A stretch of 64,000 nt of DNA from NCBI GenBank assembly GCA_001824295.1, contig MHWY01000001.1, positions 5,034 through 69,033 on the forward strand, read 5' to 3'. Shown one piece after another: positions 9,052 to 64,000 of the stretch (positions within the stretch are counted from its first letter, which is position 1; the number at the start of each line of letters is the position of its first letter). The notes under the pieces are model-generated. The model worked only from the letters and a program-made list of their open reading frames with translations. It was not told where the DNA came from and made no database searches. The stretch comes from Candidatus Zambryskibacteria bacterium RIFOXYD1_FULL_40_13 (GTDB lineage Bacteria; Patescibacteriota; Minisyncoccia; Phycocordibacterales; DATDWN01). The position numbers and the translations under genes were made by a program.

Positions 9052-9885
9052 TTAAAATACCAAAAAGAGGACAACAGCCAATATAACTCTGTACCATATA
9101 AACACATTGAGATTGTGGTTCTTTAAGTATCTTATTAAAAAGTTAATGGCAATGAGTCCTGTGATAAAAGCCGTGATACAGCCAAGTAAAAGTGGTAAAC
9201 CAAAACTTGTAGAAAATAGCTCGTGACGGACATCAAAAACTTTTTTCAGTCCGGCCCCCAGAAGTATTGGCAGAGAAAGCAAGAAGCTGAACCTCACCGC
9301 CTCGTCTTTTGTAAATCCCATTATAAGTCCTCCAGAAATAGTAGCCCCCGAACGAGACATGCCGGGAATTAGGGCCAAACACTGAAAGAACCCAACAACG
9401 ATTCCTCTGCTTAAACTAATCCCCCTGTTTTCTTTTGCCACTCTTTCAGCAAACCAAAACAAAATACTTCCAAGAATGAGTGTTAGGCCGACAAGCTCAA
9501 CATTTCTGAATATAGTCTCCATCCAGTTTTCAAACAAAAGCCCAAAAATAATCGCTGGTATAGTACCAAACACTATGGCCAAAAGCAGGGTTCTGTTTGT
9601 ATGTTGTTCTAGGTCAACTTTTCTCTTGAAAACATACTTTGCGACATAATCCTTAGCAGTTTGAAATAATGCCCAAATATCTCCCCCAAAATATACCAGG
9701 AGAGCCAGTGTTGCAGAGAGCTGAAGTATGGCATCAAAGGCTAAACCACCAAAGTTGTTTGTTCCGAGTATTTGGCGAAAAATAATAAGGTGTCCAGAGG
9801 AAGAAACCGGAATAAATTCGGTAGCCCCCTCAATAAAACCAAGAATTATTGCTATAAAATATGTCATATAGTACAATGTTAGCAT
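9052..9885 (-). CDS. uppP: undecaprenyl-diphosphatase
   Basis: EGATEFIPVSSSGHLII signature and 8-TM architecture of BacA/UppP. Confidence 0.85.
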   Translation of the reverse strand: MLTLYYMTYFIAIILGFIEGATEFIPVSSSGHLIIFRQILGTNNFGGLAFDAILQLSATLALLVYFGGDIWALFQTAKDYVAKYVFKRKVDLEQHTNRTLLLAIVFGTIPAIIFGLLFENWMETIFRNVELVGLTLILGSILFWFAERVAKENRGISLSRGIVVGFFQCLALIPGMSRSGATISGGLIMGFTKDEAVRFSFLLSLPILLGAGLKKVFDVRHELFSTSFGLPLLLGCITAFITGLIAINFLIRYLKNHNLNVFIWYRVILAVVLFLVF

Positions 9886-10876: not shown

Positions 10877-13795
10877 TTATTTTAGTAATTTTCTGTAACC
10901 ACAATACTGACAATTAGGGTCACTGCAGTATTTTGTAGTTATTTCTCCACTCCAAACACTATCAACGAGAGATTTTATTTCGGCTTGTACACGACTAATA
11001 TCATCACTCTCAACCGGTAGTGTAACCACTGGACACCTGCCTTTATCATCAGGAGAAATGAAAACGAGTGATGTGTTTATGTTTTTTGATTGATAAAAAG
11101 AATTATTATTTAAAAGCATCTTATAAAAAACTAACTGTCTAAAATAATTGCCCTCACTATTTTGAGTCTCCCCTTTAATAGCAGCAACAGACATCCCCTG
11201 CCTTGTTTTATAATCAAATACAGACACAGCATTTCCATCATCCACAACAACATCAAGTTTGCCGTGTATATTTATAATTATTTTTTTTGCATCATATTTA
11301 ATATCCAAAGGGGCTTCAAACCATCTTTCGGTTGAAACTGAACCATTAGAGCTAAAATGTGAAACTAGTGCCTCTGCTACAAAATGAGCATCTTCTGAAA
11401 GCTCTGCTTTTAATCGCGTTTTATCTTCCTGAGATAAAAGTGATTTATTTATATATTCTGTGGTAGTAGATATTATTGTTTCTTCTGTTTGTTTTGGTGT
11501 ATTCTCTCTTTTTGTCCAAATCCTACGCATAGCCTCATGCATAGCACTGCCTTTTTCTGAAGACAATGATGGTGCCTGTGGCATCTTTAAAATACTTTCA
11601 TACAAAAACTTACTAGGACATTCCAAAAAGTGATTTAGGGCTGTAACAGATAATCCATTTTGAAGTAAAACTTTTTTGGCCTCACTTACCATAAGAGCAT
11701 CGTTTTCATTCTCAGTTATTTTTTCTTTTTTTAAATCACTTAGATGAACATCTTTTCTTTCTAAACAAGTTTCTGTAGTACAATCCTTGTGCAACTCACC
11801 TACAAAACGGAGAGGGGTTAACATTTTACCATCTGATTCTTCTGTTGAGTACAAAATGACCGCATGCTTACGCGCACGAGTTATCGCAACATAAAACAAC
11901 CTTCTTGTATCCCTAATATCATTATCATTTAATCCTCTGCCTGGCAAAACAAAAGATGAGCCGTGTGACCTACCAACCCAACTCTCCTCATTGGCATATG
12001 GTATAAAAACATAATCAAATTCCAAACCCTTAGAACCATGAGCTGTCATAGCTTTAATGGGAAAATCTGGGGCACCAACAGAGACTTTAACCGTTTTGGA
12101 TTCGGCCGATTGTCTGTATTTGAGCATCATATTCATAAGCTCTAGCGGACTTATTATGTCACCGTCACGAGCTAAAGATTCCGCCAGAGTGACAATACCC
12201 TTCCAAACATGAACAAAAGACGGATCTTTGGCGACAAGACCAACAAAACCAGATTCTTCAGCTAAATGAATAATCCCACTGACGGCACCGTCATGAAGCA
12301 TTTTTTCCCTAATACGTGAAATTGCTGGAATAAATGAATGAAGATTTTCCACCTGTCCAGATTTCAATAGATGGATAATTTCCAAAGATTTACCAAAAGA
12401 AACACCCCACATTCCGATAATCAAAGTTTTTGCTAAAAAATCAAAACGAGAAGGGTCGGCTATATATTCAATTAAATCGAAGAAAGCTATGCCCAACGGA
12501 TGATGAAATATATCAAGGCTTCTTTCAGAAGAGACAAGAATATTTTGCGATTCTAAAAGCCTAAGCACTCTCTCTAGCTCCCTATTTCTTCTTGTAATTA
12601 TGGCAACTGTTGCCTCTGGCTCTTTTCTTGAAATATCGCGTAATCTATCTACCAAATAGTGTTCAATGGCGGGAGTGTTTTCTCCAACAAGAATATCAAG
12701 AGGGTGAGCTTTTTCTTTATTACCAGATTTTAGTTTTTTTCTAAGATCAACATATTCACCTTCATCATAATTATTTTCTATCATGGCAAAACTAGCATCT
12801 AATATGCCTTGATGAGAACGATAGTTTGTATCAAGATTTATAACCTTCATACTGGGCCAGTGTTTTTGTAATTTTAGAAAGTTTTCAACAGAAGCACCCT
12901 GAAATCTGTATATGGCCTGTTTTTCATCTCCAACAATAAAAATATTCGGGGTCTCGAAAAATTCAGCAATGAGACTTATAATAAGGTTTTGTGAGTCATT
13001 TGTATCCTGGTGCTCATCAACCAAAAGATAAAGAAACCTTTCCTGTATAAGACGCAAAAGAAGTTCGTCCGTACGCATTGTCACCAAAAGTTCAATGATC
13101 AAATCATCGTAATCTTTCAATTTTGCCTCTTTTTTCTTTTCTTCATATTTTTTATAGACATCGGCAAATAAAAGGGTCTTATCAAGCTTTTCTAGTTTAT
13201 TCAAAGCATCAGCCTTTAACTTTCCTTTTGTTGCCCCTCTTGTGGAAATATTAGATTCATCATTTTTAATATTCTTAATTTCTTTTTTTACAAAATCACG
13301 CACATCTTCCGGAGTTAGGGCGTCTTTTTTTGCATCTGAAATGGTTTTTATTATAGAGGATATGTAAACATCTGGTCGCCCAATAGGACGAAGTGGAGCA
13401 AAAATAGATTCAGAAATAATGTCACGAATAAAAGACTCTTGATCAACATCAGTCATTTGTTTAAAGTCACCAATTCTTAAAAAGTGGTCTGGATATTCAG
13501 ACATCATCGCTGAGGCAAAACTATGAAATGTGTGAATGTAGACATCATGTGCACGGTTTCCAATAATTTCGCGTAATTTTTCACGCATTGCTCTAACCCC
13601 GGCATCTGTATAAGTAATGGCTAATATACCGTGAGCTGGTGTATCTGTTTTACGTAAAATTTCAGCAATACGCAAGGTTAGTATTGTTGTTTTACCGGTC
13701 CCTGGACCAGCAACAACTAAGACAGGACCATCTATTGTATCAACCGCCATCTTCTGCTCTTTATTAAGTTTTGCATACCTTTCCTCAAAAGACAT
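10877..13795 (-). CDS. UvrD/PcrA-family SF1 helicase fused to C-terminal PD-(D/E)xK nuclease with Cys cluster (AddA/RecB-like)
   Basis: Walker A AGPGTGKT, helicase motifs, C-terminal nuclease region ending CSDPNCQYCGYRK. Confidence 0.75.
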   Translation of the reverse strand: MSFEERYAKLNKEQKMAVDTIDGPVLVVAGPGTGKTTILTLRIAEILRKTDTPAHGILAITYTDAGVRAMREKLREIIGNRAHDVYIHTFHSFASAMMSEYPDHFLRIGDFKQMTDVDQESFIRDIISESIFAPLRPIGRPDVYISSIIKTISDAKKDALTPEDVRDFVKKEIKNIKNDESNISTRGATKGKLKADALNKLEKLDKTLLFADVYKKYEEKKKEAKLKDYDDLIIELLVTMRTDELLLRLIQERFLYLLVDEHQDTNDSQNLIISLIAEFFETPNIFIVGDEKQAIYRFQGASVENFLKLQKHWPSMKVINLDTNYRSHQGILDASFAMIENNYDEGEYVDLRKKLKSGNKEKAHPLDILVGENTPAIEHYLVDRLRDISRKEPEATVAIITRRNRELERVLRLLESQNILVSSERSLDIFHHPLGIAFFDLIEYIADPSRFDFLAKTLIIGMWGVSFGKSLEIIHLLKSGQVENLHSFIPAISRIREKMLHDGAVSGIIHLAEESGFVGLVAKDPSFVHVWKGIVTLAESLARDGDIISPLELMNMMLKYRQSAESKTVKVSVGAPDFPIKAMTAHGSKGLEFDYVFIPYANEESWVGRSHGSSFVLPGRGLNDNDIRDTRRLFYVAITRARKHAVILYSTEESDGKMLTPLRFVGELHKDCTTETCLERKDVHLSDLKKEKITENENDALMVSEAKKVLLQNGLSVTALNHFLECPSKFLYESILKMPQAPSLSSEKGSAMHEAMRRIWTKRENTPKQTEETIISTTTEYINKSLLSQEDKTRLKAELSEDAHFVAEALVSHFSSNGSVSTERWFEAPLDIKYDAKKIIINIHGKLDVVVDDGNAVSVFDYKTRQGMSVAAIKGETQNSEGNYFRQLVFYKMLLNNNSFYQSKNINTSLVFISPDDKGRCPVVTLPVESDDISRVQAEIKSLVDSVWSGEITTKYCSDPNCQYCGYRKLLK

Positions 13796-13837
13796 ACATA
13801 TAGGATAGCACGAATTTTATGGTACGAAAAAAGTCTT

Positions 13838-13868
13838 GTGCGTGCTTGGGGGGCCACGATGCCCCCCA
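13838..13868 (-). terminator. GC-rich hairpin plus T-run
   Basis: cttggggggc cacgat gccccccacacaag, T-run on minus strand. Confidence 0.45.
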
Positions 13869-13877
13869 CACAAGACC

Positions 13878-14054
13878 TCAGAGATGCCCACGAAGGTAGA
13901 CTGCCTGCTCCTCTTCTGGTAGTGGAACCTTGTCAGCGTCCACTTCCCAGAGAAGACACCCGCCACATTTCTCACTTCGACAGATGTAGTAACTCTGTTG
14001 AACAATGTACACTTCACACCCACAAAAAGGACAGATTTTTTTGTCGTCTTCCAT
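13878..14054 (-). CDS. small zinc-ribbon protein (GC-rich island 4)
   Basis: CPFCGC ... CRSEKCGGC two CxxC pairs; GGGGGA SD-like before second ATG (MEDDKK...). Confidence 0.4.
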   Translation of the reverse strand: MEDDKKICPFCGCEVYIVQQSYYICRSEKCGGCLLWEVDADKVPLPEEEQAVYLRGHL

Positions 14055-14132
14055 GTGTCCCCCAAAAAACAAAAGTGACCCAACGGGTCACACCCACAAG
14101 ATAATAACACAATTCCTCTATACGAAAAACCC

Positions 14133-14169
14133 CGTGCGCTGAGGGACCCCACGTTGGGTCCCGCGCACG
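14133..14169. terminator. nested GC-rich hairpin between island-4 genes
   Basis: cgtgcgc tgag ggaccc cacgtt gggtcc cgcgcacg. Confidence 0.4.
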
Positions 14170-14178
14170 AGGCATGTA

Positions 14179-14802
14179 CTATCTGTTGGTACGCCTCAGA
14201 GAGACGAGGACGATAATTCCACACAGAATAGCACAGGAAAAGGGATACAACCTCTCTTCGACAGTCCAACCCTTACCACCTACCACTGACAACACATTGA
14301 CAAAGGTATAGCCAGTGTAGATGAGCCAGGGTGATTCCTCTGGCCTACGCCACGAATCCCGAAGTTGAGGGAAACCACCAAGGACAACGCCGGTTGTGGA
14401 TAGCACTGTGGCAAGCCAGGGGTTGTCGTATCCCCAAACGATGACACACCACGCGGTCAGACAAACCACAACCAGTATCGAAACTCTCGTTTCCACTCTG
14501 GTCCAGTTATAGTTGCCGGACTTCAGGATGCACGTAACGACAAGCGTACACCCAAAGACATAGGCAACTGGTAGCTGAAAATTTCCGCCCGCCACAAAGA
14601 TTGATGCACCCGCAAAAGCATCAAGTGACCCCCACAAGATAAAAGTCGCAAGATTCTGCGTTACTTTCCTCGTGAGAATCTGATACGAGAGAGGGAGGTA
14701 GAGGATGAGTGCTACGACGACGCTCACCTTCTGGTAAATATTCACTGTGACCCCTCCTGTTTGCTCATGGGCAACATACCCACCCACCTTAAAGATTAAC
14801 AT
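14179..14802 (-). CDS. hypothetical polytopic membrane protein (GC-rich island 4)
   Basis: about 6-7 predicted TM helices; GC-rich; alternative GTG start with AGGAGG SD about 18 codons downstream of the first ATG. Confidence 0.45.
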   Translation of the reverse strand: MLIFKVGGYVAHEQTGGVTVNIYQKVSVVVALILYLPLSYQILTRKVTQNLATFILWGSLDAFAGASIFVAGGNFQLPVAYVFGCTLVVTCILKSGNYNWTRVETRVSILVVVCLTAWCVIVWGYDNPWLATVLSTTGVVLGGFPQLRDSWRRPEESPWLIYTGYTFVNVLSVVGGKGWTVEERLYPFSCAILCGIIVLVSLRRTNR

Positions 14803-14917
14803 TTAATATGCTGATTGTCAAATAACTCATAGTCTTAAAGAGTCCAAAGTTAAACAAAACCCAACACTTGTTGGGTTTTGTATCTCCGAAAATATATTCT
14901 ATGAAAAAACTCAATAA

Positions 14918-16213
14918 CTAGAAATAATTACGTAAGCGATTTATTTTATCATGCTGTCTAATCTTTTCATGGGCCTTGGCCTCAATTTGTCTTATACGTT
15001 CTCGGGTCACACCAAACTCCCTGCCCACTTCTTCAAGCGTGTGTGTTACACCATCAACAAGTCCATGACGAAGCTCTAAGATTTTTCTTTCCTTTTCTGG
15101 TAAGTCATTCAATATTTCCTTCACCTGGTCTGATATTATTCTTCTTGATGACTCCATTTCTGGTGAAAGAATCTTCTCGTCCGCAAGGAAATCTCCAAGC
15201 TTACTCTTGCTCTCATCCCCATCCTCCCCGATTGGACTCTCTAGAGAGAGGGTGCTTTGGTCTATTTTCTCTATTGTATATACCTTATCAACAGAAAGAT
15301 TCATTTCAATAGCAATCTCCTCTGGTAGTGGGTCTCTCCCCAAGTCTTGCGATAGTCTTCTGACGACCTGTTTATACTTGGCAATAGTCTCCACCATGTG
15401 AACTGGTACACGAATAGTTCTGGACTGGTCTGCCAGGGCACGGGTTATGGCCTGACGAATCCACCATGTGGCATAGGTTGAAAACTTATAACCCTTTGTC
15501 CAGTCAAACTTACTTACAGCCTTAAATAATCCTAAGTTTCCTTCTTGAATCAAATCAAGCAGAGTTAAATCAGGACTTCGATTTGCATATTTCTTGGCAA
15601 TAGAAACCACAAGACGAAGGTTGGCCCTGGCCAAAAGGTTTATGGCCTCAACGTCCCCCTTTTCTATTCGCTTTGCCAGCTCTTTTTCCATCCCTCCAGA
15701 AATCAGCTGGTATTGACCAATCTCTTTGAGATACATCTGGATAGAATCGTAGGAAGACTCACTGTTTCGCCCATAAGCATATTTTTTATTTATAAGGTCT
15801 TCATTTGATGAGCTCTCAAGCAATCCTCCTCCTTCTAGAATGTCCACGCCACTTTCAGACAACTTTTCGTATAATTCATCAAGAAAAATTATGTCGTCTT
15901 CTACCGTGGGAAACTCTTTTAATATTTCATCATAAGTAACATAGCCACGTTCCTTGCCCTTAGCCAGGAGCCTCACCATCCCCTCACCCTGCCTATCAGA
16001 TTTCTTCATGGCTGGAGCCTTCTTTTGGACAACGGTTTTCGCAGCACGCATTGCAAGCGAGGTTTTGTTTTTCTTTTTCTTTCTTACCTTTGGTACAACG
16101 AACCTCTTTGTCTTCTTTGCCTTTATTTTGGCTTTTACCAATTTCTTGGCAGACTTTCGTGGCTTACGCCTTGTCTCTTTACCTTTTTTTATCTTTATTT
16201 TTTTATTTTTCAT
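14918..16213 (-). CDS. rpoD: RNA polymerase sigma-70 factor (primary sigma)
   Basis: lysine-rich N-terminus, region 2 [40 protein letters not shown], region 4 HTH. Confidence 0.85.
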
Positions 16214-17927
16214 AACTGTTTTTAATATTATTTATTTGTTTTGAAATATCCTGACATTCTTCCAAATATTTTCTTATCTCAACCTCATCCTTTTTTTGTT
16301 CAGCTCTCTGAAGATTTGCCATGGCAGATGCAAATCTTTGTTTCAGATGTTCTTCCTCAAACCCAGAAACTAGCTGCTCTATCTCCTTGTTTGAGCTTGG
16401 CTTTCCACCATAATAACTTTCTACCTCAAACAACAGAGAATCCCTATCGTTTTTATATTTGTCTTCCAAACCCACAGCTCTCTCTCCCAAAATGTTCTGA
16501 ATTCTTTGTTCTATCTCTAAAATATTCAAGTCCTCTATCTTTCCCGAGCTTTCCTTTTGCCACATTATAATTCCGATAATCTTTCTTTCCATTTCATCTA
16601 TCCGCTTAAGTGGTGGTGATGATGTATTTCCGGTCGTGGACACGATTGAATCTGGTCGTATTTTTTTCAAATCATCCCAGAGGGCTTCCTCATTTAAGAA
16701 AGTTTTCCTCATAATACTTTTAATAAAATGTGCCTTGTCTATTTGGTTTGCCAGTTGTGCAACATAAGGAAGGACGTGCTTTCGTATTTCCATGTTCAGA
16801 TTATAGTTAAGGTTTCTTGGATCAAGACCTTTGGTCGTCAGCATGTCGGTATAAAAATCAATAATATGTTTTGAATCAGAAAGTAGAGATTTTAGGAGTT
16901 CAACATCCTCTCTTGCCAAATCTGCCGGGTCCTTCCCTTCTGGCATTGAAACTAGTTTCAAGTCCATCCCAAGAGAAAGCGCAATCTTTCCAGCACGATT
17001 GGAGGCTACAAATCCCGCAGAATCACCATCAAAGAACATTTTTATGTTATTTGAAAGTCTTTGCAGTTTTATCAAGTGGTTGGGAGTTAGAGCTGTTCCT
17101 GATGAGGCGACTGCGTTTGTCATACCTATCTGATGCAACATTATGAGATCCATTTGTCCCTCAACTAATATAGAATAATCCCGAAGTCTTATATCTTTCT
17201 TTGCCTTATCCAAACCAAAAAGAATCTCTGATTTGTTAAATAAAACTGTTTCTGGGCTGTTAAGATATTTCGGCGATTTATCATCCGAAACAAGAATTCT
17301 TCCAGAAAACCCAACTGGCCTACCTGAAGAATCGTTTATCGGAAACATTATTCTTCCTCTAAATGTGTCATAGTACGAGGTTGTCCCCTCTTTCTGTTTT
17401 ATTAGCCCCACAGCAAGCATGTCTTTCTCACCTATCTCTCTTCCCGAAAGATAATCAAATAGTTCACGCCAGTCAGCTGGAGCAAAACCAATACGAAAAT
17501 CTTTGATAGTTTTCTCTGACACCCCTCTATTTTTGAGATAATCTTGAGCTTCTTTATTATCTGAAAATTTCTTTTGATAGAAGAACACGGCTTGCTCTAA
17601 AACAGAATGTAATCTTTGCTTTTCGGTCTTTTCTCCAACGTTGTAACTTTCCAAAACGACACCCGCCTGGTCAGCCAAGACCTTCAAACTACCTATAAAA
17701 TCAAGTCCTTCAAATTCTTGTACAAAGGTAAATATATCCCCCTTTGCCTGACAACCGAAACAGTAATAACTGCCTCTGTCTGGTGAGACAAAGAAGGAGG
17801 GTGTTTTTTCGTTATGGAATGGGCACCTGCCCTTATAATTTGTTCCAGCTTTTTCTAGTTTTATATAACTAGAAATCAGCGAGACAATATCTATTTTTGA
17901 TTTGATTTGGTCAACAGATGAGGACAT
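16203..17927 (-). CDS. dnaG: DNA primase
   Basis: CHC2 zinc finger [13 protein letters not shown]...[17 protein letters not shown] domain; 11-nt overlap with rpoD (dnaG-rpoD operon). Confidence 0.85.
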
Positions 17928-49680: not shown

Positions 49681-51786
49681 TTATATGTCGATGGTGGCTT
49701 TTGTAGCGTTCGACTGGATAAAACTCTTCCTCGCAGGCACATCCGTACCCATCAAAATATCAAACACCTTGTCTGCAGAAACTGTATCCTCTATAACAAC
49801 TTGTTTCAGAATTCTTCTTGCGGGGTCCATGGTTGTCTCCCACAGTTCTTCTGAGTTCATTTCTCCAAGACCTTTGTATCGCTGAATATGAAGCTTGGCT
49901 GTTTTGGGTTTATCTCCCCTTTTACCCTTCTTGTTTTCCTCATCTGTTTCCTCTTCCACCTCTTCTCCTTCTGGTTGTACCTCTTCAACCTCAGTTATTT
50001 CTTCGACTACCTCATTGCCAACAATCTTAGCCTTATCGTCATCTGAGTATGCGTAAAATATCTCTTTGCCTTTTTTGATTTTATAAAGTGGTGGTTGGGC
50101 AATATAAACGAACCCGCCGTCTATAAGTGGTCTGAAATATCTATAAAGCAGAGTCAAAATAAGCGTTCGTATGTGGGCTCCGTCCACGTCGGCATCTGTT
50201 GCTATGATTATTTTGTGATACCTTAGTTTCGCCACATCAAACGTATCCCCTATGGCAGTGCCGAGAGCGATAACTAAGTTTCTTATTTGTTCTGACTCAA
50301 GCAGTCTATCAAGTCTTGCTCTTTCAATATTCAAAATCTTACCTCTAAGTGGAAGTATGGCCTGTGTTCGTCTATCGCGTCCAGTCTTGGCCGTACCTCC
50401 AGCGGAATCTCCCTCCACAATAAACAGTTCTGAATCCTCTGCACTCTTACTCTGACAGTCAGCGAGTTTTCCAGGAAGAGTCATGCCCTCTAGTGCACCC
50501 TTACGGAGAACAGAATCTTTGGCGGCCTTTGCTGCCTTACGAGCCTTAAGTGCAATAACTACTTTGTTTATTATGGCCTTGGCATCGTCTGGATTTTCCT
50601 CAAGAAAATATGTGAAGGCTTCCGAGAAAACAGTATTCACAGAACCCTGAGCTTCGACAGAGCCAAGCTTAGCCTTTGTTTGGCCTTCAAACTGAATCTC
50701 ACGAAGTTTTACAGAAATAACGGCAGTTAGCCCCTCCAAAACGTCATCACCAGTAAAATTATCCTCGCTCTCTTTTATCAAGTTATTTTTTCTACCATAA
50801 GTATTTAGAGTTCTGGTCAAGGCCGTCTTAAACCCGGTGACATGAGTACCACCCTCTGGGTTATAAATGTTGTTTGCAAATGGTAAAAGTCGGCAAGAGA
50901 TATCATCTACATATTGCAAGGAGATTTCTACCGATTCGTACTCATTGGTTTTCTTTTCCACATAAAAAACATTTTTATGTATTGGTTTTTGGTCGCTGTT
51001 ATAAAACTTAACAAGAGACAAGAGACCTCCTTCAAAGTAAAAGGTCATAGACGGTATTTCTAGCCCTAACTCAGTTACATTGAAAACATCTTCTTCTTTT
51101 ATTTTACCTGTATAATTTCTCGCATCATTCACAACAATTCTAAGACCCTTAACCAAGTAAGCTTGCTGACGTAAGTGTTCAACAACTTTATCAAAATCAA
51201 ACTCAATGATTGGGAAAATGGCTTTGTCTGGTTCAAAAACCACAACAGTACCTTTTTCTTTTGTCGTTCCGATTTTTTTGACACTGGCTTTCTTTTTTCC
51301 CTGAGAATATTCCTGCATGTAAATACCTCCGTCTTTGTAAACGGTAACCTTACAATATACAGAAAGGGCGTTGACCACCGACGCACCAACTCCATGAAGT
51401 CCTCCCGAAACCTTGTAACCACCACCCTCACCACCAAATTTACCACCAGCATGCAGTGTGGTCATAATAGTCTCTAGAGCAGAGACTTTGGTTTGTTTAT
51501 GAATATCAACCGGAATACCGCGACCGTTATCTGTAACACGAATTCTGTTTCCAGGTAGTAAAGTAACCTCTATATGACTAGCAAAACCACCCATGGCTTC
51601 ATCACGAGAGTTATCAAAAATCTCCCAGATAAGATGGTGTAGACCATCTAATCCAGTTGTACCAATGTACATACCTGGGCGCTTTCTTACGGGTTCTAGA
51701 CCCTCAAGGATTTGGATTGCATCAGCTCCGTAACTATCCTTACCCTGAGCTTTGCCGGTGGGCTTTTTCTGTGTTGTTTTAACCAT
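49681..51786 (-). CDS. gyrB: DNA gyrase subunit B (type IIA topoisomerase B subunit)
   Basis: GHKL ATPase N-terminus, TOPRIM EGDSAGG motif, acidic C-terminal insertion. Confidence 0.85.
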   Translation of the reverse strand: MVKTTQKKPTGKAQGKDSYGADAIQILEGLEPVRKRPGMYIGTTGLDGLHHLIWEIFDNSRDEAMGGFASHIEVTLLPGNRIRVTDNGRGIPVDIHKQTKVSALETIMTTLHAGGKFGGEGGGYKVSGGLHGVGASVVNALSVYCKVTVYKDGGIYMQEYSQGKKKASVKKIGTTKEKGTVVVFEPDKAIFPIIEFDFDKVVEHLRQQAYLVKGLRIVVNDARNYTGKIKEEDVFNVTELGLEIPSMTFYFEGGLLSLVKFYNSDQKPIHKNVFYVEKKTNEYESVEISLQYVDDISCRLLPFANNIYNPEGGTHVTGFKTALTRTLNTYGRKNNLIKESEDNFTGDDVLEGLTAVISVKLREIQFEGQTKAKLGSVEAQGSVNTVFSEAFTYFLEENPDDAKAIINKVVIALKARKAAKAAKDSVLRKGALEGMTLPGKLADCQSKSAEDSELFIVEGDSAGGTAKTGRDRRTQAILPLRGKILNIERARLDRLLESEQIRNLVIALGTAIGDTFDVAKLRYHKIIIATDADVDGAHIRTLILTLLYRYFRPLIDGGFVYIAQPPLYKIKKGKEIFYAYSDDDKAKIVGNEVVEEITEVEEVQPEGEEVEEETDEENKKGKRGDKPKTAKLHIQRYKGLGEMNSEELWETTMDPARRILKQVVIEDTVSADKVFDILMGTDVPARKSFIQSNATKATIDI

Positions 51787-57649: not shown

Positions 57650-57835
57650 ATCTTAATAGTATACCACAAGCCACTAGTCCACAGTGGTACAAGATACAAA
57701 AACAACCCCTTGTAAGAGATTGTTTTCTTGAGTGTTTATATGATTCCGCTCGAACTTACTTTATCAAAAATTCGTGAGTAATGAAATGTTTGCAATCTCG
57801 GCAAATGAATTCCGTCACGGCTCGCTTCGAGCTAC

Positions 57836-58027
57836 GCCCAACCCTGTTTTTGATTCTTAGTTTTTTTGGCGGGACATTTCTTTGAATTCACATTCCTATT
57901 GGTATCAAACAGGGTTGGGCTCCACTCTTTCGCTCTCCGTCCGCCCTCGCCTCGCCACCGTATTCATTCTAGATTTTTTGGCGCGGATTTCTTTTGATTT
58001 GTATGGCGGTGGTGGGGCTCGGGGCGG
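57836..58027 (+). other. tandem pair of hairpin modules with conserved loop and different stems, upstream of vWA gene
   Basis: unit 1 stem gcccaaccctgtttttgat / atcaaacagggttgggc; unit 2 stem ccgccctcgcctcgccaccg / cggtggtggggctcggggcgg; loops share ttct(t)agattttttggcg(g)gacatttctttgaatt. Confidence 0.45.
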
Positions 58028-58081
58028 GTAATTTTACGCTAAATTATGACATTGTAATATGTTTTAATAATACGATATACT

Positions 58082-60349
58082 ATGGATATGGAGGGGATAA
58101 AATTAAACCAAGAAATACCTGAAAATAAGTCTACTGGGACTCTAGAACAGGTATATCAAGCTCTAAATCCAAACAGAGAGAAACAAATTCTTGCCAAATT
58201 TACTCCAGAACAGCAAGAAGAAATTAGGCAGAAACAACAAATACTCTCCTCTTTGGCTTACTTTGTAGGTAAGGACTTCCGCATACCAGTTGAATTAAAT
58301 GAGCCAGGGGGCGGTTGGTACTGGAATTTTAAAGATAATGAAATAAGAATTGATCCAAAAGATCTTCTGGAAAAATCAATGGATTATTTGAGATTTGTTA
58401 TCTCTCATGAAGGAGGACATAGGAGAATAAGTAGGACAGATTTCATACCCTTAGAAGAATGGCAACAGCCAGGATTCTCTTTCATGACGAATGCTATAGA
58501 AGATCCAAGGGATAATAATTTCGTAGCTGAAAGTTATCCAAAATTCAGAGAACAAATGAGTTTGGCATATGAACAAGACTTAGATTTTGAGGCAAAAGCT
58601 AAAGAAAAAGCCGATCAAAAACTTGGATATAAACCTAGATTTATGCAGGCTGGATTTGAATATATAAAACAGTGGTTTAGAGAAACCAAAGGGCAGGATT
58701 TTGAAATTTCTCCTGATTTACCAGAAGAGGTTAGGGTTGTGGTTGAGGCAACCCTAGAGTCAGCTCAAGATTCTTGGCTTCGATATCCATCACGACAAGA
58801 AGCAGATAAAAGTGAGGAATTGATCAGGAAATATGCCGAACTTTCATACAAAATCAATCGCGACTTTGTCTGGCCAGAATTTAAAAAGTTAATTGATGCT
58901 GATATGGAAGATCAGAAAATGGAAGAACTTTTGAAAGATATGCAAAAAAATAAGGACGGAGGGGAAGAAAAAAACGATGGAAAAATAAAATTGCCACAAG
59001 AACTGAAAGACAAACTAACTCCAGAAGAACAACAAACTCTTGAAGAGGCTATTAAAAAAGCAATTGAGCAAGCTAAAAAAGAACAGCAAGAGGCTAAAGA
59101 AAAAGCAGAAAAAGATATTAAGAAACAAGGCGAAGCTACGACAGAAAAGGGAGAAAAAACTGAAGGCACTCCCGAGCCAGACGCAGATGGTACACCCCAA
59201 GATATAGAAGGAGAAAAATCGGGAGGGGGTAAGCCAATAAATCTTGACTCTCTGTCAGAAGAATTGAAACAAAAAATTAAGGATTATATTTATTCACTTC
59301 CAGAAGAAGAACAAAGAGAAATTAAAGAACAAGCAGAAAAAGTCTTTAAAGAATTCGAGGATGCTTTGAGTGAAGAACTGCAAGGTAAACTCTCAGATAA
59401 TCCAGATAAAAAAGCCGAGAGAGAATCAAAAGATAAACCTAAAGAAGAACTAGAAAAGGAAGAAAAAACCGAAAAGGGCAGACCAGAAGTCGATGAAGAG
59501 GAATTGAGAAAATATAAAGATAGGGTCGCAAAGGAACTCAAAAAAGATGAAAATTTATATGAACATATGCGACAAGAAGTTTTGCCTCTTATAGATAAAC
59601 TCGAAAATGAACTGCGAGAAATATTCGTTGCTCGTCGAGCTCAGGGGTGGAAAAGTGGTTTTACTACAGGCAAGAGAATTGACATAAAAAGAAGAATTCA
59701 AGAAAAAGCCAAATCAGTCCATGCAATGGAAAGCAAAGCATGGCAAAAAAGAGAACTACCAAAAGAAAAGGACTATGCCATTTCTATGTTGGTTGATTTG
59801 TCAGGTTCAATGTCAAACGGAAATAAAATACGAGAGACATTCAAGGCTGTCATTGTCTTGTCAGAGGTATTAAATCGTTTGTCTATTAATCTTGAAGTAC
59901 TTGGTTTTAATGATCGAATTTATGAGTATCAGGATTTCGGAGAACAGATGTCAAAACTTATACGAGAACATATGGGGGGTATGCTTGCCGAAGTAAATGA
60001 TACGAGTGATACAGGTAAGGCTAGATGGAATGATGATGGGTGGGCATTGGAACAAGCATCTGATAGATTGGCTCGACAAAAAGCGGACCAAAAATTCTTG
60101 ATAGTTATGTCTGACGGTACACCCGAAGAATCTTCCATGCACCCAAGAGCCAAATATGAACTTGGTAAGATGATTAAAAAAGTTCTAGAGGAAAGTGATG
60201 TTCGCCTTGTGGGTCTTGGTATCGGTCAAGGAACTGAGCATGTAAGTAGATATTATCCAAACAGTATTGCAAATGTGAAGGTAGAAGAAATGGCAGAAAA
60301 ATTAGCTGATCTTATAAGAGAAGTCATTGCTAATTACGAAAATTTTTAG
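58082..60349 (+). CDS. DUF2201-like protein: N-terminal putative metallopeptidase (HEGGH) domain, long Lys/Glu-rich linker, C-terminal vWA domain
   Basis: ISHEGGHRR HExxH-like motif; vWA MIDAS MLVDLSGSM and MSDGTPEE; architecture typical of vWA partners of MoxR AAA_5 ATPases. Confidence 0.65.
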   Translation: MDMEGIKLNQEIPENKSTGTLEQVYQALNPNREKQILAKFTPEQQEEIRQKQQILSSLAYFVGKDFRIPVELNEPGGGWYWNFKDNEIRIDPKDLLEKSMDYLRFVISHEGGHRRISRTDFIPLEEWQQPGFSFMTNAIEDPRDNNFVAESYPKFREQMSLAYEQDLDFEAKAKEKADQKLGYKPRFMQAGFEYIKQWFRETKGQDFEISPDLPEEVRVVVEATLESAQDSWLRYPSRQEADKSEELIRKYAELSYKINRDFVWPEFKKLIDADMEDQKMEELLKDMQKNKDGGEEKNDGKIKLPQELKDKLTPEEQQTLEEAIKKAIEQAKKEQQEAKEKAEKDIKKQGEATTEKGEKTEGTPEPDADGTPQDIEGEKSGGGKPINLDSLSEELKQKIKDYIYSLPEEEQREIKEQAEKVFKEFEDALSEELQGKLSDNPDKKAERESKDKPKEELEKEEKTEKGRPEVDEEELRKYKDRVAKELKKDENLYEHMRQEVLPLIDKLENELREIFVARRAQGWKSGFTTGKRIDIKRRIQEKAKSVHAMESKAWQKRELPKEKDYAISMLVDLSGSMSNGNKIRETFKAVIVLSEVLNRLSINLEVLGFNDRIYEYQDFGEQMSKLIREHMGGMLAEVNDTSDTGKARWNDDGWALEQASDRLARQKADQKFLIVMSDGTPEESSMHPRAKYELGKMIKKVLEESDVRLVGLGIGQGTEHVSRYYPNSIANVKVEEMAEKLADLIREVIANYENF

Positions 60350-60363
60350 TATAAATAAGCTGT

Positions 60364-60777
60364 ATGAAAGAGACTGAAAATAAAGAATTTATAGATTTTC
60401 TGAAGGTGGCTTTTGGTCAAAAAGAGGTTGGATTGATTATGGCTAAAAATAGAGATGAATTAGGTGATTTTTCTAGAATAATGGATAATGAGGGATTTAA
60501 GAGATCAGATAATATTTTGGATTTATTAAATTCTCCAAAAATGTATCTCTCTGTTGATGAAAATATGAATAAAGATGTTTATGATTTTATTGTTCAATAC
60601 CCAACAGGTCAAGTGGAAATATTTGATAATACAGCAATGAAATCGAACACATTTTCACCAAACCATACTAATAGTTGTGTAGTTATTCTTGTTCTAAAAG
60701 AAGACTTGAGCAAAATTCAAGAAAAAGGTTGGGATATTTTGTCTCTATGTGGCGTAACATATCAATCACAAATTTAA
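60364..60777 (+). CDS. hypothetical 137-aa protein between vWA and AAA_5 genes
   Basis: same strand and tight spacing as flanking genes; no recognised domain. Confidence 0.4.
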   Translation: MKETENKEFIDFLKVAFGQKEVGLIMAKNRDELGDFSRIMDNEGFKRSDNILDLLNSPKMYLSVDENMNKDVYDFIVQYPTGQVEIFDNTAMKSNTFSPNHTNSCVVILVLKEDLSKIQEKGWDILSLCGVTYQSQI

Positions 60778-60788
60778 TTTTTTAAATT

Positions 60789-62960
60789 ATGAAATTCGGC
60801 GAATCACAATTTAATGCTCTGAATACAGAAAATCCTAACAAAAATGAAGGGTTGAAAAACCCTGAGCCTCTAGATAATACTGACCCAATAGCCGAAGACG
60901 AGGATTCAATGTCATATTTAGGAGTTACACTAGAAAAAGCAAAATCTGGACACGATCAATTTGTACCAAAAAGGGAGCAGTATGGAGATTTCATAAATGA
61001 TAAAGAAGTGGCATTACCACTTCAAAGGGATGTGGCGGTTGCCTTCATGAGTGGAGAACCACTTCTCGTAGACGGAGGCACTTCTCTTGGTAAAACTACT
61101 ACAATTAGGAAAATGGCAAGCGAGCTCGGTTGGGAGGTCCACTATGCAAACTTAAATGGTGCGACGGATGTGGAAGATCTCATGGGTAGATATATCCCTA
61201 ATCCTCACAAGAATAAACCTGAAGATCCGGAATATATTTTTGCGGATGGAAAAGTAACCAGTGGTTTGAGACAAGAAGAAGGTAAGGTTAAGGTTATTAT
61301 ATTGGATGAATTTAACGCTTCGGCTCCAAACATTCTCATTCGCCTCCATGAAGTGCTGGACTCTCTAGAAAGAGGTGGAGACGTTATATTATCGGAAGAT
61401 GCTTCGGAAGCGGTGGCAGTAAACAAAGGAGTGACTAAAATCGTTGCACTGATGAACCCTCCAGGTAAAGGATACTTTGGACGAGAACCATTAGACCCTG
61501 CTCAACTTCGTAGATGGGTATATAAAAAACTTCCGTCTGAATTACCTGCAAATACATTCTCTTATGCAACAGACTCTCTTTTTGGATTGGCTAGTGAACA
61601 ACAGAACATAACTCCTGATATGTTCTTGCGAGCCAGAGGGGAAGGTTTAACACATGAACAACTACAAGATATTCCTGGTCTTCCTGAGGTCTTGGAGAAA
61701 TACAAAGAGTTCCATAAGGCCTCAAAAGAACTGTTAAAAAACAGAAAGATTGCTGAAGATCAACCACAACCTTTTACTTATGATGATCGTATGGAACCTC
61801 GCAGAGTCAGAGATTTTATTTTGAGATTTTATAATGGAGATCTCAATGAGACCATGCAACAAGCTCTCCGTTATTACTATGCAAATAAACTAGAAAGTGA
61901 CGCTGATAGAAAAAAGCTTGGCGAGCTCATACGATTAGTTGAATATAAAGCAAAACCTGGAGAGTCGAAAAGGAAAGGTTTGGAAGTGGGAGTCTCTAAA
62001 GAAAAAGCTGGTCTAATAAATGATATAGAAAAACTAAAAGCTGAAGTTGAAGCAAGTGGAAAATTGCCAAAAACAGAGTCTAAGGATTCACCAGATACTC
62101 TGTTAAAGAAAATGGAGTTAGCCAAAGAAATGCTCGGTAAGGATTTCATGGGCCCAGAAAAAATTGAGAAAGCTTTTGGTATTAAATTAGCCACAGAAGA
62201 TATTCCAGATATGCCGTATTCAATTGAGGATCTTGAGCGAGCCAAAGAAAACGGAGAAATGCTTGTGTTAGGGGTAGACAAAGATTCAAGCGGTAAGCTT
62301 CTTACCATAGCTCATATGCTTGAAATGATTCCTGAACTAAAGGATCCGACCACAGGAGAAAAGATTAAAGTTTTATATGGTCAAGAAAAACCTGGTTCTA
62401 AATTGGCTGATGATTGTTGGTATAGAAATGAGCCATTTTATACAGGTGTTAATAAAGATGGTACCATTATCCCAGATGCCCATCCTCGTCTCAGATGGAG
62501 ATTAACATCAAAAGCCCCCCTTCCTGAATCAATAGCCACTTCTTATGGCGGTACCGCTGAAAAATCTACTAACTATGTTGAACAAACAAAGATTTTAAGA
62601 GAATATCTTACGTCTGTAGGGTCTCTCTCTGAAGATGAGGCGAAAGAATCTTCCGATAAAGTTCTTACAGAAATATCAAAACTCATGGAGTCTGACTGGA
62701 AAGAAGCGGCTAAAAGACTTTCTGAACTTACAATAAACAAAAATCACAGAAGACTTCCTCCAGAAGTTATTTACGATATATTGCTTTCCATAAAAGGAAA
62801 TGACGAGCGAATTATGGAACAAGTATATGATTGGACAGCGGCCCTTTCGTCTGGTGGCGAGCTGGTGTCTGTCGGCGGCGCTTACCGTGGCGGTGTGGGC
62901 GTCAGCGCCGACGGGCCCGACGGTCGCGATGGCCCTCTTGGTGTCGTTTCTCTCCGCTAG
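60789..62960 (+). CDS. AAA_5 (MoxR/CbbQ-like) ATPase with long uncharacterised C-terminal region
   Basis: Walker A DGGTSLGKTTT, Walker B VIILDEFN, sensor region; C-terminal about 300 aa paralogous to next ORF; GC-rich 3-prime tail. Confidence 0.7.
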   Translation: MKFGESQFNALNTENPNKNEGLKNPEPLDNTDPIAEDEDSMSYLGVTLEKAKSGHDQFVPKREQYGDFINDKEVALPLQRDVAVAFMSGEPLLVDGGTSLGKTTTIRKMASELGWEVHYANLNGATDVEDLMGRYIPNPHKNKPEDPEYIFADGKVTSGLRQEEGKVKVIILDEFNASAPNILIRLHEVLDSLERGGDVILSEDASEAVAVNKGVTKIVALMNPPGKGYFGREPLDPAQLRRWVYKKLPSELPANTFSYATDSLFGLASEQQNITPDMFLRARGEGLTHEQLQDIPGLPEVLEKYKEFHKASKELLKNRKIAEDQPQPFTYDDRMEPRRVRDFILRFYNGDLNETMQQALRYYYANKLESDADRKKLGELIRLVEYKAKPGESKRKGLEVGVSKEKAGLINDIEKLKAEVEASGKLPKTESKDSPDTLLKKMELAKEMLGKDFMGPEKIEKAFGIKLATEDIPDMPYSIEDLERAKENGEMLVLGVDKDSSGKLLTIAHMLEMIPELKDPTTGEKIKVLYGQEKPGSKLADDCWYRNEPFYTGVNKDGTIIPDAHPRLRWRLTSKAPLPESIATSYGGTAEKSTNYVEQTKILREYLTSVGSLSEDEAKESSDKVLTEISKLMESDWKEAAKRLSELTINKNHRRLPPEVIYDILLSIKGNDERIMEQVYDWTAALSSGGELVSVGGAYRGGVGVSADGPDGRDGPLGVVSLR

Positions 62961-63057: not shown

Positions 63058-64000
63058 ATGGAAGGTATACCTACAACTCCAAGTAAAGAAAAAAGTCTTG
63101 AAAAAGATGAGTTTTCAGGTTCCAAGACTCTCGAAGAAATAGCTAGAATACAAAAAGGTCGAGACCTCAGCGCTTTGAGTGTGAAGGAACTCTCTTCTAT
63201 AAGAGAAAAGTACATCAGATTGAAACAAGAGTTAAATATTGGTGGAAAGGAAGTGAAAGAAGGAATGGAAACTTCCTATGAGCAAGCTCAAGAGATTATG
63301 GGAGAAAGTTTTTATGGGACAGAAGAAATAAAGAACACTTTTGGATTTGAATTTCCGAAAGAAAAAATACCCCATGTTCCGTATACTCCCGAAGTGCTTG
63401 AAAAAGCAAAGGAAAATGGAGAGATGTTGGTGTTACGTGTAGAAAGCGATGGATCGGGCTCTTCTATAACCATGCAAAGAATGAATGAAATCATGCAGAC
63501 CATTCTGGAGAAGGATAGTGAGGAAGAACAGGAAAAGTTGCTTTATGATACTAATTGGTATCACGAGGAAGATTTCTTTAAAAATGCTTCCTTAAAGACT
63601 GAGTGGAGAATAGTCGGCAAAGAATTCATACCAGACTCAACGAGTAAGAATTATATAGAACAGACTAAGATATTACGAGACTATCTCTTTGGTTTAGAGT
63701 CACTCTCTGAAGAAGAGAAATCAGAATGTACCGATGAGCTACTTGAAGGACTTCAAAAAATGCTTGATGACGATTATGATAAAAATTGGCAAGAGGTTGC
63801 CAAGAAACTTTCAGAGCTTTTGGTTAATAAAAATCACAGACGAATTCCAGCAGAAATATTATATGATTGGGTTTTACAGTTTAGAAATAGAAAAGATCGA
63901 GGTATTTTGGAAGAAAATTATGACTGGTCAAACACCCTTTCGTCTGATGGCGGGCTGGTGTATGTCGGCTACGCTGACCGTGGCGGTGTGGACGTCGGCG
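63058..64000 (+). CDS. paralog of the C-terminal module of the AAA_5 protein (partial, runs off window)
   Basis: shared blocks AKENGEMLVL, YIEQTKILRDYL, NKNHRRIPAEI and near-identical GC-rich 3-prime tail; ORF open to window end. Confidence 0.5.
   Translation, partial: MEGIPTTPSKEKSLEKDEFSGSKTLEEIARIQKGRDLSALSVKELSSIREKYIRLKQELNIGGKEVKEGMETSYEQAQEIMGESFYGTEEIKNTFGFEFPKEKIPHVPYTPEVLEKAKENGEMLVLRVESDGSGSSITMQRMNEIMQTILEKDSEEEQEKLLYDTNWYHEEDFFKNASLKTEWRIVGKEFIPDSTSKNYIEQTKILRDYLFGLESLSEEEKSECTDELLEGLQKMLDDDYDKNWQEVAKKLSELLVNKNHRRIPAEILYDWVLQFRNRKDRGILEENYDWSNTLSSDGGLVYVGYADRGGVDVG

Follow-up and report, generated by a model that had tools for sequence, protein, structure and literature searches.

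The stretch of DNA analysed here, referred to throughout as the window, comprises 64,000 nt of contig MHWY01000001.1 from Candidatus Zambryskibacteria bacterium RIFOXYD1_FULL_40_13, and it ends within the second of two paralogous genes that share nearly identical 3' tails. Our interpretation, to which we assign a probability of roughly 85%, is that both tails are variable regions (VR1 and VR2) of a single diversity-generating retroelement (DGR) with two targets, in a bacterium of the Candidate Phyla Radiation (CPR; Candidatus Zambryskibacteria, Parcubacteria). The parts of the element that lie past the window end are taken from public contigs: the exact protein encoded by the first open reading frame (ORF1) is found on many of these, of which six (L001–L006) were fetched for comparison. 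L003 is 100% identical to the window between positions 50789 and 64000, and from 57730 onward the remaining fetched contigs show complete or almost complete identity to it. Beyond the window end, the fetched contigs supply the end of the second gene (ORF2), a template repeat (TR), a hairpin, a bAvd gene and a gene for a reverse transcriptase (RT); the window-equivalent coordinates used for this region are L001 coordinates plus 50788. The components of the element are:

60789..62960, forward strand: target gene 1 (ORF1), 723 residues, with an N-terminal AAA_5 domain (Midasin/MoxR-type AAA+) and a VR-bearing C-terminal part of ~330 residues.
62842..62956, forward strand: VR1, 115 nt, at the 3' end of target gene 1; matches the TR; G+C content 0.70.
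62937..62956, forward strand: invariant 3' end of VR1, CTTGGTGTCGTTTCTCTCCG, like an initiation of mutagenic homing (IMH) site; identical in VR1, VR2 and the TR.
63058..64000, forward strand, cut by the window end and stopping at 64053: target gene 2 (ORF2), 331 residues (L001 12270–13265).
63935..64000, in full to window-equivalent 64049, forward strand: VR2, in target gene 2 (L001 13147–13261).
Window-equivalent 64389–64503 (L001 13601–13715): TR, non-coding, 115 nt with 24 adenines.
Window-equivalent 64539–64925 (L001 13751–14137), reverse strand: Avd gene (Pfam bAvd).
Window-equivalent 64926–65951 (L001 14138–15163): gene for a DGR-type RT of 341 residues (RVT_1).

A preliminary description of the window had drawn attention to tails of about 90% identity on two otherwise diverged paralogs, and to an abrupt rise in their G+C content; both observations hold, as do its coordinates, its sequence and the tail peptide SSGGELVSVGGAYRGGVGV, which agrees with the translation. 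From CCCTTTCGTCTG (at 62842 and 63935, respectively) to the window end, 58 of 66 nucleotides are identical (88%), and across the whole 115-nt repeat, with the end of VR2 taken from the identical longer contig, the count is 100 of 115 (87%). By comparison, only 34 of the 60 nucleotides directly 5' of the tails agree (~57%), and the codon-aligned nucleotide identity over the rest of the paralogous region is ~0.45–0.65. The step in identity at CCCTTTCGTCTG is abrupt and, therefore, the boundary is sharp rather than the product of a smooth decay. Likewise, the G+C content is 0.70 in 62838–62960 and 0.67 in 63935–64000, versus 0.39 in the part of ORF1 that precedes the tail and 0.41 across the window as a whole, and adenine accounts for only 7 of the 123 nt in the former tail. 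In a blastn search of the window with the tail, the second copy was found with an E-value of 1.7e-17, and there was no further significant match within the window. A third copy does, however, lie ~390 nt past the window end, beyond the completed second paralog (VR2 to 64049, gene to 64053); thus, what is seen is neither a tail confined to two sites nor one whose flanking similarity fades gradually, which is the outcome that the preliminary description had held would count against it. All eight of the in-window mismatches between the tails fall at codon positions 1 or 2, and it was this, together with the scarcity of adenine, that suggested a DGR. Indeed, when two diverged paralogs in an A+T-rich genome end in a sharply delimited, G+C-rich, A-poor and nearly identical tail, this can be relied on as a visual sign of DGR VRs.

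The third copy is the TR, which is situated in an intergenic region ~340 nt downstream of paralog 2. There are 18 mismatches between VR1 and the TR, every one of them at a TR adenine; VR2 also has 18, of which 17 are at TR adenines and the other is a C>G change. The hypergeometric probabilities of such a restriction to adenines are ~3e-16 and ~7e-14, respectively. When VR1 and VR2 are compared with one another, 15 positions differ, of which 14 hold an adenine in the TR. Moreover, the 24 TR adenines are partitioned with respect to the reading frame of the targets, with 11 at codon position 1, 13 at position 2 and none at position 3: read in this frame, the TR gives ...GNANRNGVNVNANRPDNRNGN..., in which nine Asn (AAY) codons and five others hold the adenines, and both VRs stop one codon short of the stop codon. 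The nine AAY codons alone would allow 15^9, or >10^10, variants of a binding site. The composition of the tails follows from the same arrangement. The G+C content of the TR is 0.55, as against 0.70 for VR1 and 0.67 for VR2, and the TR adenine has become G in 14 of the 18 changes in VR1 and 14 of the 17 in VR2; the tails are G+C-rich and A-poor because the TR avoids A where variation is unwanted, and because most of its adenines are now G in the VRs. By the same token, the two tails are ~90% identical because both copy one template, with the differences kept to programmed sites. The bias from A to G gives mostly Gly, Asp and Ser codons, and could stem from either the misincorporation spectrum of the RT or selection.

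In the preliminary description, gene conversion or cassette exchange had been offered as the origin of the tails. This was right in so far as a homogenizing process, rather than ordinary descent, is at work, but only partly so, because the sequence that would be written over both tails is that of a non-coding third repeat, the TR, by way of an RNA intermediate and an error-prone RT (mutagenic retrohoming): there is no paralog-to-paralog exchange and no recombination site. We give almost no credence to a scenario free of any retroelement, in which the 3' ends of the paralogs simply underwent gene conversion or were recently duplicated in part: it would accommodate a sharply bounded block of high identity in tandem paralogs, and the resemblance also seen downstream of the VRs (38 of 60 nt), but it leaves unexplained the third, non-coding copy beside genes for RT and Avd, the restriction of changes to template adenines and to codon positions 1–2, the depletion of A, and the recurrence of the same pattern in orthologous cassettes with as little as 34% identity. 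It is equally hard to credit that the tails represent a C-terminal peptide, or an RNA or recoding signal, maintained by purifying selection. In an alignment of ORF2 homologs (44 proteins, all of Parcubacteria type where the source is named), the scaffold residues (G, V and LGVVSLR) are invariant across the family, as such selection could bring about, whereas the positions that correspond to the Asn codons of the TR are hypervariable. The conserved C-terminal peptide of the preliminary description is merely the invariant scaffold of a hypervariable domain. Furthermore, synonymous sites should vary under selection on the peptide, yet the DNA itself does not differ at the non-adenine positions. 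With regard to an RNA signal, a scan of the whole cassette against Rfam (E ≤ 1) gave no match, including none to a group II intron RNA, and the suggestion of a recoding signal is unsupported, as the ORF closes with an unremarkable TAG or TAA and holds no in-frame recoding feature.

DGR-type RTs are distinguished by an [I/L]GxxxSQ motif in addition to YxDD. The RT encoded downstream of the TR matches Pfam RVT_1 (2e-23) and presents LGNLTSQ at residue 179 and YADD at residue 211; in NCBIfam, it shows only sub-threshold similarity to group II intron RTs. The Avd protein matches Pfam bAvd (2e-17; 64.1 bits against a cut-off of 40) and NCBIfam DivGenRetAVD (6.8e-20; 71.3 bits, just below the curated cut-off of 80). 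PADLOC returned generic RT models and a weak AAA match (mad8) for the cassette, and nothing else. No nucleotide separates the divergently oriented Avd and RT genes, whose start codons abut as CAT|ATG (L001 14135–14140; window-equivalent ~64923–64928) and, thus, each promoter must sit within the other gene or farther off.

The likely course of diversification can be drawn from established DGR biology (Bordetella phage BPP-1 and others, as summarized in PMC5758913). The TR would be transcribed, probably from a promoter-like TTCACG-17-TATAAT site with an extended −10 TG, which lies between VR2 and the TR, and the transcript would end at the hairpin. The RT, with Avd, would then copy the TR RNA into cDNA, placing random bases opposite the template adenines, and this cDNA would replace the VR of either target, with the invariant 20-nt 3' end serving as the anchor. 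The organization of the 3' ends is consistent with this: the last A-to-N difference is directly upstream of CTTGGTGTCGTTTCTCTCCG, and 3' of it the VRs (CTARTTCTTCTCTCT) and the TR (AAGTCACTCTCGTG) diverge, so that a shared 20-nt segment followed by VR- or TR-specific sequence fits what would be expected of an IMH/IMH* pair. Directly 3' of the TR is a perfect hairpin, AAAACGAACAG / CTGTTCGTTTT. The 3' flank of the TR, CCGAAGT(CACTCTCGT), and the hairpin are kept in three cassettes (L001 13708–13765, and ~9392–9450 and ~9352–9410 in the more distant contigs L009 and L010, respectively), with the CACTCTCGT extension present in L001 and L009. Changes in the hairpin stem across these cassettes preserve the pairing and, in L010, the hairpin has the form of a canonical terminator, namely, a G+C stem followed by a T-run. 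The conserved flank and hairpin may be the counterpart of the spacer or priming region of DGR RNAs, or alternatively a terminator held in common with avd.

The same arrangement is conserved in relatives. In both L009 and L010, the gene order is a vWA/CobT_C gene, an ORF of ~135 residues, an AAA_5 gene of ~700–790 residues, an ORF of ~325 residues, TR, (bAvd) and RT, and the mismatches between repeats are again confined almost entirely to TR adenines:

L009 (GCA_001825335.1), 74% identity to ORF2: mismatches at TR adenines, 12 of 12 in VR1 and 13 of 13 in VR2.
L010 (GCA_002255585.1), 34% identity to ORF2: mismatches at TR adenines, 15 of 16 in VR1 and 21 of 21 in VR2.

In closer orthologs, of 87–92% identity, the differences are concentrated in the VR, where the programmed codons are completely different.

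A number of observations weigh against a DGR that is functioning as outlined above, and most of them would suit one that is frozen or a relic, its VRs having been written in the past and no longer diversified in this lineage. Six contigs, representing at least five assemblies, do not differ in VR1, VR2 or the TR, and 43 blocks of the contig collection index the exact ORF1 protein. The repeats remain unchanged even in L004 (GCA_003523205.1), which differs from the window at 57 positions, all of them within 63240–63717 of ORF2, upstream of VR2; this 480-nt patch (~12% divergent) looks like either a recombinant stretch or a strain-chimeric assembly, and no differences occur in the remaining ~5.8 kb, to which VR1, VR2 and the TR belong. 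In the JGI contig L006 (6951–7950), the RT is split into two ORFs of 190 and 146 residues, which could be a frameshifted, inactive population variant or a sequencing error. A short contig, L007, has three nucleotide differences from VR2, and these affect three central sites only, unlike the result of one complete homing event. Additionally, there is no G+C-rich inverted repeat (cruciform) 3' of VR1 or VR2, although, according to the passages of Wu et al. that deal with this feature (PMC5758913), such a repeat follows the VR in only 34% of DGRs. Nevertheless, we consider it unlikely that the element is frozen. Mismatches to the TR at non-adenine positions number just 0 (VR1) and 1 (VR2), so the VRs can hardly have decayed after the most recent homing. 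Five of the six contigs have intact RT and Avd genes and, taken with the paucity of non-adenine mismatches, this argues that homing was recent. Moreover, all three of the L007 changes are at TR adenines, and the programmed VR codons of the orthologs of 87–92% identity are, as noted, completely different. The identity of the VRs in the six contigs points to low turnover in the sampled population, or to samples that share one clone; many of the contigs derive from a single aquifer study, and one clone may be what they sample.

The source genomes are GW2011 and RIFOXY aquifer bins, which are the sort of material that the published DGR surveys drew upon, and an identical ORF1 protein is deposited at NCBI as KKQ99146.1 ('Midasin') from GW2011_GWC1_39_12. 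A search with the 20-nt invariant anchor gave no matches in genome_contigs, a collection that evidently does not include the aquifer contigs. The same applies to metagenome_contigs, in which the single match to the anchor, L008, proved to be unrelated and due to chance.

As a two-target DGR, the element is a member of a class already described in CPR bacteria. In the passages of Wu et al. (2018, Nucleic Acids Research; PMC5758913) that concern these elements and build on a CPR/DPANN survey cited there, architecture B3, TR-(avd)-RT, accounts for 90% of CPR DGRs, two targets occur in 13% of DGRs, and the CPR targets of class 'UVR4' match the AAA-ATPase domain of Midasin. The present element shares with them the order of target(s), TR, reverse-strand avd and RT, the presence of two targets, the C-terminal location of the VR, the AAC codons of the TR, the Midasin-like AAA domain, a Parcubacteria-type host and, indeed, the same aquifer genome sets. 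We see no substantive difference from the elements as these passages portray them, in which the conserved vWA partner described below goes unmentioned and the fold of the UVR domain is left open. The comparison with the prototype, the mtd-avd-TR-brt DGR of Bordetella phage BPP-1, reveals the same A-specific transfer from TR to VR, a VR at the 3' end of the target, Avd, a DGR-type RT and an invariant, IMH-like 3' end. Here, however, avd is inverted and abuts the start of the RT gene, the TR lies upstream of avd, and a hairpin directly follows the TR, as opposed to a spacer of ~140 nt before the RT; there are two targets and no G+C-rich cruciform after the VR. Furthermore, the BPP-1 target is a phage tail fibre, whereas the targets here appear to be cytoplasmic, and structure searches gave no significant match to a C-type lectin fold.

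The genes immediately upstream of target gene 1 also belong to the cassette:

58082..60349, forward strand: vWA/CobT_C protein, 755 residues (Pfam CobT_C 2.3e-17, VWA 2.1e-7).
60364..60777, forward strand: conserved small ORF between the vWA and AAA genes, 137 residues.

Within ORF1, the AAA_5 domain is matched with an E-value of 1.4e-10, and the best sequence matches in the PDB are AAA modules of Midasin (2.5e-31), CobS and NorQ. ORF2 is a paralog of just the C-terminal domain of this protein, encoded as a separate gene, and aligns to residues ~367–705 of ORF1. The vWA/CobT_C gene is two genes upstream of the AAA+ target, a position that it keeps in L009 and L010, and the 137-residue ORF between them has counterparts of 135 and 134 residues, respectively. 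In L002, ~35 extra nucleotides are present near window positions 59938–59940, in the Lys/Glu-rich middle of the vWA protein, and the gene is called as two ORFs of 626 and 153 residues; the segment is highly charged and of low complexity, and the difference is one of length. Neither the 137-residue ORF nor the VR-bearing domain has a match in Pfam, NCBIfam or PADLOC. No hydrophobic segment of transmembrane grade, and no obvious signal peptide, was found in the four cassette proteins, which, as judged from their sequences, look cytoplasmic; CPR targets are usually devoid of recognizable transmembrane or other domains (Roux et al. 2021; PMC8144416). For ORF2, AlphaFold modelling with 26 homologs gave a confident structure, with a predicted local distance difference test score (pLDDT) of 85.7 and a predicted template modelling score (pTM) of 0.76, and the VR corresponds to three C-terminal strands in this model. 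Foldseek searches with it found nothing significant in the PDB or BFVD; the faint, non-significant top matches, to the FGE-like SenA, EgtB and a C-type lectin, are hints only.

In the literature searched, Midasin and DGRs were brought together only by Wu et al. (2018) and by Kaur et al. (2020, eLife; PMC7159879). The latter describe the MoxR-vWA-VMAP 'ternary' conflict systems of cyanobacteria and gammaproteobacteria, in which a DGR-diversified domain of lectin fold is carried on the vWA component. The present cassette resembles these functionally, as it also pairs a MoxR/Midasin-class AAA+ protein with a vWA protein and has one component with a DGR-diversified C-terminal domain, but it departs from them in two defining features. 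First, in those systems it is the vWA protein to which the hypervariable FGS (C-type lectin) domain is joined, whereas here the variable domain is fused to AAA+; secondly, they possess VMAP, whereas here none was recognized in general family scans, which did not include a VMAP model. Additionally, in the present case a free paralog is also diversified, the vWA protein resembles CobT and the element resides in an ultra-small, unicellular CPR bacterium.

The whole cassette, from the vWA gene through to the RT gene, is bracketed by a perfect inverted repeat:

57730..58029: left arm of the 300-bp perfect inverted repeat; the right arm is at window-equivalent 66880–67179 (L001 16092–16391).

The arms are separated by 8850 nt. 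The left arm is flanked by the HNH/PheS side in the window and in L003, and by a large serine recombinase gene (531 residues) in L001, L002, L004, L005 and L006; the L003 contig ends exactly at the right arm. These two flank arrangements could mean that the cassette truly inverts, or else result from the path chosen by the assembler through the repeat. A bolder proposal is that the cassette is a cytoplasmic, DGR-diversified recognition machine of CPR bacteria, in which an intracellular 'receptor', with a VR fold unlike solved structures, is combined with an AAA+/vWA remodelling pair that is MoxR-vWA-like but differently wired; in this genome, with its inverted repeats and adjacent large serine recombinase gene, the cassette might also be inverted as a unit. 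We offer this tentatively, and regard it as rather unlikely. The roles of the AAA+, vWA and free paralog proteins, the fold of the VR and a possible inversion of the cassette by the neighbouring recombinase could all bear on targeted hypermutation in ultra-small symbiotic bacteria.

Most of the serine recombinase gene lies within a second perfect inverted repeat, of 147 nt (L001 5185–5331 and 6798–6944), the right arm of which directly adjoins the 300-bp repeat. Inversion at this repeat would swap the C terminus of the recombinase, although it could equally be an assembly artefact. In L009, a faint Phage_rep_O-like ORF and another large serine recombinase gene (586 residues), at 13452–16509, lie 2.6–4 kb downstream of the RT gene, which suggests that the DGR cassettes travel with, or adjoin, integrative elements.

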